Shown in pieces: positions 198 to 1,859 of a DNA stretch of 2,335 nt; position 1 is the stretch's first letter, and each line of letters begins with the position of its first letter. The notes under the pieces were generated by a model, which worked only from the letters and a program-made list of their open reading frames with translations, did not search any database and was not told the origin of the DNA. The stretch comes from Escherichia coli (GTDB lineage: Bacteria; Pseudomonadota; Gammaproteobacteria; Enterobacterales; Enterobacteriaceae): NCBI RefSeq assembly GCF_003334385.1, contig NZ_QOWN01000100.1, one strand, 5' to 3'. Made by a program: the position numbers and the translations under genes.

Positions 198-1859
198 TTA
201 TATGAAAAAAACCGCATATTCTTTCTTTTTCGGCTCCGGATTCAGGGACATCAGGGATACCGCATTGAAGAGCGCCATCAGCGGGTCAATTTTCCCCCGC
301 CCGCTGGCCTGTTTGGTAATAAGGATAGCGTTACCTTTAGGCTCCACCCGGGCATTGCCAACGCACCAGGCCATCAGTGGCTGACCACCATGCACCAGTA
401 CTCCCTCAGCCAGTTTGCGCTCGGTGGTTTTTATGGCCCCGCCCAGCTTCCAGCCCTGGCTTATCCCCACAACAATTCCGTCGGGGATCCCGGCTTCCGC
501 CAGTGAATCCAGAATCTGCCCCACACCTGACGGGTCAATACCGATATGCTCCAGTAACTCAGCCTCATGAATACGACGCACATACTCCGCCACTTCCGCC
601 GTGTCATCCCCGACCCGACGGACAATCGTCATGTCTCCACAGGCCACAAAATCCTGAAAACGGGATGCCTCACTCTTCCGTCTGACCACCGCGGTTTCAT
701 GCGCCCAGGCATGGCCCCAGCCCAGCCATTCGCGGGTTTCCCTGTCACGGCCAATCACGTACATTCCCAGCAGATCATCCAGGCCCCCGCCGTCAATCCC
801 CACCGTCACCACATCAGCGCGCTGCAGGATATCGTCCAGGCTGACGCGCCTGCCCTGCTGCTCCCAGAAATCCGCACCCGCCCAGCGGTCAGAACGCAGG
901 GCAAGACCAATTTCCACATTGGCATGTTTTGACATGAAGCCACGAAATGCTTCCTCACCAGCCTCCCGGGCTTTACGGTACTCCCGGTACAGAAAAGCCT
1001 CATCCACCGAATAACCGAGATTCGGATTGACCATGGCGAGGTTTTCCATCAGCAGGTGAGCCCCGCTTTCCACCATTTCAGGAGGGTGTTCAAATATCAC
1101 CGGCAGAAAGTGCGGATCATGAATTTTGCCGTCGCGCACATCCCGGGCGTACTGCAGTTTCTGTCTGAACACCCCGGCGGGCGGTTCATTCGACTGGGTG
1201 GTCGTATACACCACAAACCCTTCCGGGCGGGAGGCAAGGCCGCCTATGGCTTCACGTAACATGTCCTCCGCTTTGTACTGCTTGCCAAATAACCACAGTT
1301 CATCAATCAGCGTCCCCACGGACTTGATACCGGATACCGTATTCGGATCGGCAGCCACCACCTTAAGGGTGGTGTCCGTCACCCTGTGGGTGATGGTCCG
1401 GATATGTGTCTGCACCTGACAGAGGTCATCCAGATCATCGTCCCGTCGTACCATATCCCGGGCAGGGTTGAAGGCGTTGGCCGCCACCTCCACAGTCGGG
1501 GCCAGAATCGTGTAACCCGCCGCCTGCCGCCAGTTCAGTAACAGCGCCGTCATCATGATCCCGGCAGCCAGCGTGGACTTCGAGTTTTTCTTGGGGATAA
1601 GGATAAACACTTCCTTGATATGGCGCACACCGGTCTGCGCATCGTAGGAGCCAAACAGGGCCGCCACCAGGTCAAACACCCACGGTGCACAGGACTCCCC
1701 GAATGTCGGGCTACCCGGTGCATCCACAATTCGCAGTTGTTTAAAAATCGCCAGGGCATGTGCGGCCTCGTCCGGATAAATCGGATCCGGAATAATCGAC
1801 AGCCCCTTTTTCAGGCGCTCTGCCCAGTCCGGGCAGGCTGTGCTCCATACAGGTATCAT
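198..1859 (-). CDS. terL: Phage terminase large subunit (TerL): N-terminal ATPase domain plus C-terminal RNase H-like nuclease domain
   Basis: Uninterrupted 553-aa ORF. Walker A-like P-loop PKKNSKST (aa 89-96, nt 1572..1595), Walker B-like TLIDE (aa 183-187, nt 1299..1313), and a C-terminal region with acidic nuclease-type motifs (VTVGIDGGGLDD at about aa 351-362, then CGDM and VGDD). Length and domain order are typical of HK97/Terminase_1-type large terminases. GAGGG Shine-Dalgarno 6 nt upstream of the ATG. Stop TAA at 198..200. Confidence 0.92.
   Translation of the reverse strand: MIPVWSTACPDWAERLKKGLSIIPDPIYPDEAAHALAIFKQLRIVDAPGSPTFGESCAPWVFDLVAALFGSYDAQTGVRHIKEVFILIPKKNSKSTLAAGIMMTALLLNWRQAAGYTILAPTVEVAANAFNPARDMVRRDDDLDDLCQVQTHIRTITHRVTDTTLKVVAADPNTVSGIKSVGTLIDELWLFGKQYKAEDMLREAIGGLASRPEGFVVYTTTQSNEPPAGVFRQKLQYARDVRDGKIHDPHFLPVIFEHPPEMVESGAHLLMENLAMVNPNLGYSVDEAFLYREYRKAREAGEEAFRGFMSKHANVEIGLALRSDRWAGADFWEQQGRRVSLDDILQRADVVTVGIDGGGLDDLLGMYVIGRDRETREWLGWGHAWAHETAVVRRKSEASRFQDFVACGDMTIVRRVGDDTAEVAEYVRRIHEAELLEHIGIDPSGVGQILDSLAEAGIPDGIVVGISQGWKLGGAIKTTERKLAEGVLVHGGQPLMAWCVGNARVEPKGNAILITKQASGRGKIDPLMALFNAVSLMSLNPEPKKKEYAVFFI

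Follow-up and report, generated by a model that had tools for sequence, protein, structure and literature searches.

Serine in the place of the Walker A glycine appears genuine and clade-typical in an HK97-type large terminase carried by Escherichia coli prophages

Canonical Walker A motifs, or P-loops, follow the pattern [AG]-x(4)-G-K-[ST] (PROSITE PS00017). The best match of known structure to the protein considered here is the large terminase subunit (TerL) of phage HK97, gp2, in which the substitutions K60A, K57A and E154A each abolish packaging and ATPase activity and mutation of R56 lowers both; the need for K57 was unexpected, and a "second lysine" subfamily of packaging ATPases was proposed (Fung et al., 2022; PMC9410871). 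Deviant but functional terminase P-loops are also on record: in the account of Mitchell and Rao (2004), as cited in later work, lambda gpA (KSARVGYS) and Mu gp28 (L70/K64) break the GxxxxGK[ST] rule, as does the protein described below, and likewise have an upstream Lys in the loop, but they are without the classical Lys, for which the upstream Lys substitutes, and the Gly is kept (V-G-Y-S in lambda). The opposite arrangement is found in the TerL encoded on a stretch of 2,335 nucleotides from Escherichia coli (assembly GCF_003334385.1, contig NZ_QOWN01000100.1), hereafter the window, where the Lys-[ST] pair is kept, with an invariant Lys94, and the Gly is replaced. An original prediction made from the letters of the window had flagged its motif PKKNSKST as a Walker A in which Ser93 stands for the Gly that precedes the catalytic Lys94. 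We consider it highly probable that this motif is the functional P-loop of an HK97-type large terminase and that Ser93 is genuine, selected or tolerated, and clade-typical, reflecting neither error nor defect.

Retranslation reproduced exactly the coordinates, residue numbering and motif of the original prediction: the reverse complement of the motif (CCC AAG AAA AAC TCG AAG TCC ACG) encodes P89 K90 K91 N92 S93 K94 S95 T96, with N92-S93 at 1581..1586. The open reading frame encodes a Terminase_1-type large terminase, as had been proposed, with matches to both the ATPase and the nuclease family of Pfam (PF03354 and PF20441; Table 1) and to the PHROG terminase large subunit families phrog_9 and phrog_7622; an NCBIfam scan of TerL gave no family match. 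In its RNase-H-like nuclease domain, which Foldseek matched to terminase nuclease domains, D356 and D442 are invariant. HK97 TerL came first by both sequence and fold, being the sole significant sequence match in the PDB (6z6d; E 9e-10 with the single sequence, 3.5e-35 with a 65-sequence profile) and standing among the top Foldseek matches of the model with the large terminases of D6E, T4 and Sf6. HMMER placed IPKKNSKSTL on IARKNGKTGL of HK97, with K94 equivalent to K60, S93 to G59, K91 to K57, K90 to R56 and D186/E187 to D153/E154. In an AlphaFold2 model (65-sequence alignment; mean pLDDT 94.4) the loop 88-93 joins strand 83-87 to helix 94-108, which as modelled is the standard P-loop geometry; K94-S95 opens this helix and D186-E187 follow strand 182-186.

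Could the true Walker A nevertheless lie elsewhere in the protein, PKKNSKST being a chance lookalike, as the original prediction had allowed? TerL has three further xK[ST] sites, and G177-x-K179 is fairly conserved, but of the four xK[ST] sites only PKKNSKST stands at a strand-loop-helix junction in the model, and residue 179 is K or R in just 46 of 65 aligned sequences. There is no match to [AG]xxxxGK[ST] in the whole 553-residue TerL, and the HMMER, profile and fold comparisons all put the HK97 Walker A on residues 89-96. In addition, five relatives (P0123, P0128, P0153, P0211 and P0242) have an intein whose insertion point falls precisely at the junction of the Walker A Lys with the [ST] (K94|S95), and this P-loop site, TerL1-a, is described as "classic" in Terminase_1 proteins and is known from mycobacteriophages (PMC5050341). 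Because four independent lines agree, namely the Pfam domains, the HK97 alignment, the model with its fold comparison and the intein site, PKKNSKST is the true Walker A of this TerL, with Ser in place of Gly as had been claimed, and we give a location elsewhere next to no credence. The inteins themselves are ~140-360 residues long and begin with Ala (ALALDTP..., with no Cys1), and four of the five show a recognisable ...THN end before the Ser/Thr; a TerL1-a-type site is thus seen here in relatives of a proteobacterial-phage TerL.

Is the serine real? The original prediction had raised the possibility of a sequence error, and one could suppose that the true residue is Gly and was altered by faulty sequencing or assembly, or by a mutation private to this genome. 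The only point in favour of such a view is the departure from the textbook GxxxxGK[ST], and much stands against it. Of the best 120 clusters of homologues (71-100% identity), 118 have Ser: 116 read PKKNSKST and two PKKNSKSS, while one reads PKKNAKST and the remaining cluster is a fusion protein that the motif pattern search did not catch; one cluster represents 8683 deposited sequences. The region as a whole is widespread too, with matches at >=80% coverage in 92 phage records and in 1126 of the 5426 complete E. coli genomes compared. In 80 viral contigs of 63-99% identity, residue 93 is Ser in 62, Thr in 13, Phe in three and Ala in two, and the Ser codons comprise all six possibilities (AGC 34, TCG 12, TCC 6, AGT 5, TCA 4, TCT 1). 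The codon is TCG in the window (turning it into a Gly codon, GGN, would take two substitutions or more), AGT in phage Lys8385Vzw and AGC in phage BP-4795, in alleles that are >96% identical at the nucleotide level. The Lys8385Vzw and BP-4795 genes differ from the window gene at 48-52 of 1662 nucleotides, and among these ~50 differences codon 93 is the only one altered at all three positions, which points to Ser having been kept through a switch of codon family, with a multi-nucleotide mutation as the alternative. Since all six codons are in use and near-identical alleles differ in codon family, sequence error is excluded as an explanation: Ser93 is genuine, and we attach a negligible probability to the contrary.

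A genuine serine might still belong to the TerL of a decaying cryptic prophage, the odd P-loop then marking loss of function. Many E. coli chromosomes harbour prophages of this type, frequently with several copies per chromosome, and numerous prophages of this kind are defective. However, the reading frame is intact over 553 residues, the clade-invariant residues (K90, K94, E187, T221 and others) are all present, and the differences from relatives are overwhelmingly synonymous (48 nucleotides against four amino acids). Most tellingly, the protein has the same length as, and differs at four residues from, both BP-4795 ORF55 and Lys8385Vzw_02; BP-4795 TerL has the same P-loop motif, and the P-loop of Lys8385Vzw TerL is identical to that of the window. 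Phage Lys8385Vzw has been induced, purified and imaged by electron microscopy, and it lysogenises laboratory strains (PMC6986202). Three isolated phages, Pseudomonas vB_Pae_U2, Stenotrophomonas QH1 and Xanthomonas Xp10, likewise have Ser at this position, which is occupied by Thr in Burkholderia vB_E175 and by Gly in Xanthomonas phiL7. Judged from infectious phages with the same P-loop, there are indirect but good grounds for thinking that the Ser-type TerL supports ATP-dependent packaging, and decay seems very improbable.

To what extent is Ser93 unusual within its own family? When 1.84 billion cluster representatives were searched exhaustively with phmmer, 5545 hits were obtained; the best 150 of them, at 31-66% identity, were analysed, and 114 of these cover the motif. 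Position 93 was occupied by S in 50, G in 32, A in 12, T in 11, N in four, W in two and F, M and D in one each, so that Gly itself is in the minority. Around it the motif is more constant: K at both 90 and 94 in all 114, K at 91 in 112, N at 92 in 99, S or T at 95 in 57 each, and P (72), S (28), A (12) or G (2) at 89. With 65 full-length members placed on a neighbour-joining tree, Fitch parsimony required at least 30 changes in column 93, compared with 9-14 in the other variable columns of the core motif (89, 92 and 95). Since Ser is the commonest residue of the column, Ser93 is unremarkable; the suggestion in the original prediction that it may simply be typical of the clade thus holds, as does its proviso that a Ser common in the family would remove the interest. 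As judged from the aligned sequences, Ser is the clade-typical and ordinary residue, and in this clade of mostly proteobacterial phages position 93 would not need Gly, with Ser, Gly, Ala and Thr apparently interchanging freely. In terms of PS00017, then, the Lys-[Ser/Thr] pair is in place (K94-S95), and the Gly before it and the Gly/Ala of the first position are not. Two further departures from consensus in the loop had gone unmentioned in the original prediction, namely Pro89 at that first position and Lys90 in the place of the P-loop arginine.

The freedom of column 93 has to be set against the possibility that Ser93 has a specific, selected role in the enterobacterial subclade, for instance by capping the N-terminus of the helix, by adding a hydrogen bond to T96 or to phosphate, or as a site of regulation. 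Three codons (TCG, AGT and AGC) are found among alleles >96% identical, codon 93 is the sole fully changed codon among 48 differences in 1662 nucleotides, and by a rough estimate the chance that any codon would so change by independent hits is ~0.01. Switches between TCN and AGY at conserved serines are reportedly a signature of selection returning to Ser via Thr or Cys, and Ser is kept in the 62 of 80 viral contigs noted above. On the other side, column 93 is the most variable of the core motif, with Gly at 28% in the wider clade, Ala or Thr occurs in close relatives, and the codon switch could also stem from a single multi-nucleotide mutation or from gene conversion over a short tract. We regard a specific role as possible but the less probable account, and prefer the reading that Ser93 is an ordinary residue of a functional P-loop.

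How does this P-loop compare with those of known packaging motors? The window TerL shares with HK97 gp2 its Pfam families, fold, P-loop register, classical Lys, second Lys, Asn at -2 and the Walker B Asp-Glu pair, and differs from it, at ~20% identity, in having Lys90 and Ser93 in place of the Arg at -4 (R56) and the Gly at -1 (G59). The "second lysine" group is defined by an additional Lys three positions ahead of the classical one (K57 in HK97); this Lys is present here as K91, and in 112 of the 114 relatives, whereas the P-loop arginine of that group is replaced by Lys90 throughout. On its sequence the window TerL belongs with HK97 in this group, differing at the positions of R56 and G59. 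In the wider PF03354 family, from phages of Gram-positive and actinobacterial hosts, the ATPase domain is homologous and the core x-[RK]-K-N-x-K-[ST] stands in the same place. T4 gp17 (SRQLGKT), P74-26 (GRQSGKS) and Sf6 (GRGSGKS) have the same additional-strand, catalytic-glutamate (ASCE) fold and strand-loop-helix position, but their loops retain G-K-[ST] together with the P-loop Arg and lack the second Lys. In T4 gp17 the glycine, Gly165, reportedly tolerates no substitution. A full-text literature search on the motif strings found no published description of the present P-loop variant, which does not prove that none exists.

Of the departures from the terminase consensus, Lys90 is arguably larger than Ser93. 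K90-K91 (window 1587-1592, minus strand) brings a Lys to the place of the P-loop arginine (HK97 R56, T4 R162, lambda R79), a residue that descriptions of T4, P74-26, D6E, lambda and HK97 call a "toggle", a sensor or a cis finger (PMC9410871 and others). We sampled the boundary between R-K-N-G-K and K-K-N-x-K with only 12 isolated phages. Seven distant members of PF03354 (22-29% identity) are all R-K-N-G-K, with Arg at position 90 as in HK97: Judy, PfEFR-5, phiCD481-1, TG1, phiSa2wa, Emmina and Saudage, whose hosts are Arthrobacter, Bacillus, Clostridium, Streptomyces, Staphylococcus, Mycobacterium and Paenibacillus. The five phages sampled from the window's own clade (vB_Pae_U2, QH1, vB_E175, phiL7 and Xp10) are all K-K-[NS]-[STG]-K. 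Within this sampling, the change from Arg to Lys at 90 and the relaxed Gly at 93 travel together.

A second association lies within the clade. In all five sequences with Gly at 96, residue 93 is W, W, F, N or D, and in all nine with a bulky or charged residue at 93 (W, F, D, M or N) there is a Gly at 96 or 97, one helical turn beyond 93 (P0122, P0148, P0155, P0176 and P0192, also P0128, P0154, P0164 and P0196; loci L034, L069 and L072). The sequences showing the covariation of 93 with Gly96 are 29-50% identical to each other, and Fisher's test gave p ~9e-7, uncorrected for phylogeny. This covariation suggests that the side chain of residue 93 most likely packs against the first turn of helix alpha1, at 96/97, and away from the phosphate cradle; Gly would be dispensable at 93 because the side chain points away from that cradle. 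A bolder proposal is that the clade has rewired its P-loop into a glycine-free [PSA]-K-K-N-x-K-[ST], in which the sensor Arg has become an invariant Lys and, in parallel, the constraint for the otherwise near-universal Gly has been lost so far that even W, F or D is accepted given Gly at +3/+4. We put this forward tentatively and think it rather doubtful; were it true, the backbone conformation or gamma-phosphate sensing would be unlike that of the T4, P74-26 and HK97 motors, and the clade would be a natural experiment on the purpose of the Walker A glycine and arginine.

If we assume that the enzyme works as its homologs do, TerL would package phage DNA as an ATP-driven motor and nuclease, with K94 and the backbone amides of residues 90-94 holding the beta and gamma phosphates and S95 coordinating Mg2+. 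K91, like HK97 K57, would add a second positive charge at the gamma-phosphate, as possibly would K90, while the Walker B aspartate D186 and the catalytic glutamate E187 would coordinate metal and activate water, and T221, in an invariant TT(Q)S segment, would serve as a C-motif or sensor-I-like element. Ser93, as the last loop position before helix alpha1, would contribute its backbone NH only. ATP turnover would then drive movement of lid and core and thereby DNA translocation, as in other TerL pentamers.

Several considerations weigh against our interpretation of a functional P-loop with an ordinary, tolerated Ser93. The codon-family switches among near-identical alleles suggest an active preference for Ser in the enterobacterial subclade, for which "freely interchangeable" may be too strong a term. 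The roles given to individual residues lean on homology to HK97 at ~20% identity, and the side-chain orientation and backbone geometry of residue 93 were read from covariation only. Finally, the numbers of E. coli genomes and phage records given above are counts of the presence of the window region as a whole.

With this result there is no longer reason to fear that the terminase has a degenerate or mis-sequenced catalytic centre. A further consequence is that a pattern search with [AG]x4GK[ST] misses the Walker A of very common terminases of enterobacterial phages, including Stx-converting ones. Lys in place of Arg at -4, a Gly at -1 that is no longer strictly kept and, where the residue at -1 is bulky, a Gly at +3/+4 that compensates for it together form a natural variant set, which is of modest value for testing the roles that have been assigned to the P-loop Arg and Gly in T4, lambda, P74-26 and HK97.

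Table 1. Coordinates in the 2,335-nucleotide window of the TerL gene, its domains and motifs, and the neighbouring genes
Feature	Position	Strand	Basis or remarks
Walker A / P-loop P89-K90-K91-N92-S93-K94-S95-T96	1572..1595	minus	Translation and HK97 TerL alignment
Ser93 codon TCG, in the canonical Gly place before the catalytic Lys	1581..1583	minus	Translation
TerL ATPase domain, residues 63-224	1188..1673	minus	Pfam PF03354 (TerL_ATPase, formerly Terminase_1), E 2.1e-11
TerL nuclease domain, residues 276-535	255..1034	minus	Pfam PF20441 (TerL_nuclease), E 9.3e-10
Walker B strand G182-T-L-I-D186 and catalytic Glu187	1299..1316	minus	Aligned to HK97 ILD153-E154; strand 182-186 in model
T219-T-T221-Q-S223 segment	1191..1205	minus	Putative C-motif / sensor-I-like element; end of strand 215-220
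TerL coding sequence	1859..198	minus	Complete, 553 residues; ATG 1859..1857, stop TAA 200..198
Small terminase subunit (TerS) gene, 3' part	2335..1856	minus	Extends beyond window edge; phrog_641 terminase small subunit, E 8e-51; equivalent to BP-4795 ORF54
Prohead-protease/major-capsid fusion gene, 5' end	134..1	minus	GTG start at 134; phrog_617 and phrog_80; equivalent to BP-4795 ORF56

Other elements of the ATPase domain are likewise conserved. In the 65-sequence alignment K90, K94 and E187 are invariant (E187 in 65/65), D186 is present in 64/65, T221 is invariant and position 220 is T or S in 65/65. We infer the C-motif or sensor-I-like assignment of the T219-S223 segment by analogy with HK97 T186, the residue used for comparison (PMC9410871). 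Directly before the Walker B strand lies the G177-x-[KR]179 motif, an R239-x-x-R242-D-G motif (residues 239-244) within helix 229-242 is invariant or near-invariant in the clade, and E257 is invariant there; such elements might belong to a lid or finger and act together with a Lys-type P-loop. E257 and E187 would be candidate contacts of K90, by analogy with the toggle of lambda. In Xanthomonas phage Xp10 the TerL homolog (L087, AY299121 1238-3321) is annotated as split into 4R, an N-terminal TerL fragment, 5R, a predicted DNA-binding module, and 6R, the remainder of TerL, the insertion lying upstream of the P-loop.

The E. coli prophage that carries the TerL gene is of the lambdoid (Stx) type and resembles BP-4795. 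Nucleotide identity of the window is 97-98% with prophages of complete E. coli genomes (1126 of 5426) and 95-97% with Stx-converting phages and their lambdoid relatives, BP-4795 and Lys8385Vzw among them. All genes of the window are on the minus strand, and TerL sits in a head-morphogenesis module, with TerS upstream and the protease/capsid gene downstream in the window and the portal gene further on in BP-4795, where the order is HNH endonuclease, TerS, TerL, protease-capsid fusion, a small open reading frame, portal and head-tail connectors. This neighbourhood is an HK97-like head module; HK97 likewise has an HNH endonuclease, TerS, TerL, HK97-type protease/capsid and portal in its neighbourhood, with the difference that the capsid gene here is a fusion of protease and major capsid protein placed before the portal gene. 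In BP-4795 this fusion is 645 residues long and lies ahead of the portal coding sequences, an order unlike that of HK97, and at the same locus (L081, 1239-3985) the adjacent ORF58 and ORF59 are both annotated as "portal protein".

A scan of the window for promoters and terminators gave no promoter-like sites and two terminator-like sites against 2.2 expected by chance. TerL and the capsid gene are separated by a 63-nucleotide spacer (window 135-197) that contains a short GC hairpin (173..156, minus strand) with a T-run after it (GGACCGCTGCGGCGGTTTTTTT), and next AGGAGG and the GTG start. At the other end of TerL, the TGA stop of TerS and the TerL ATG share the sequence ATGA (1856-1859), which suggests translational coupling of the two subunits. 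One database protein, P0014 (694 residues, PF03592 and PF03354), is a TerS-TerL fusion that probably arose as a frameshift or annotation artefact at this same junction.

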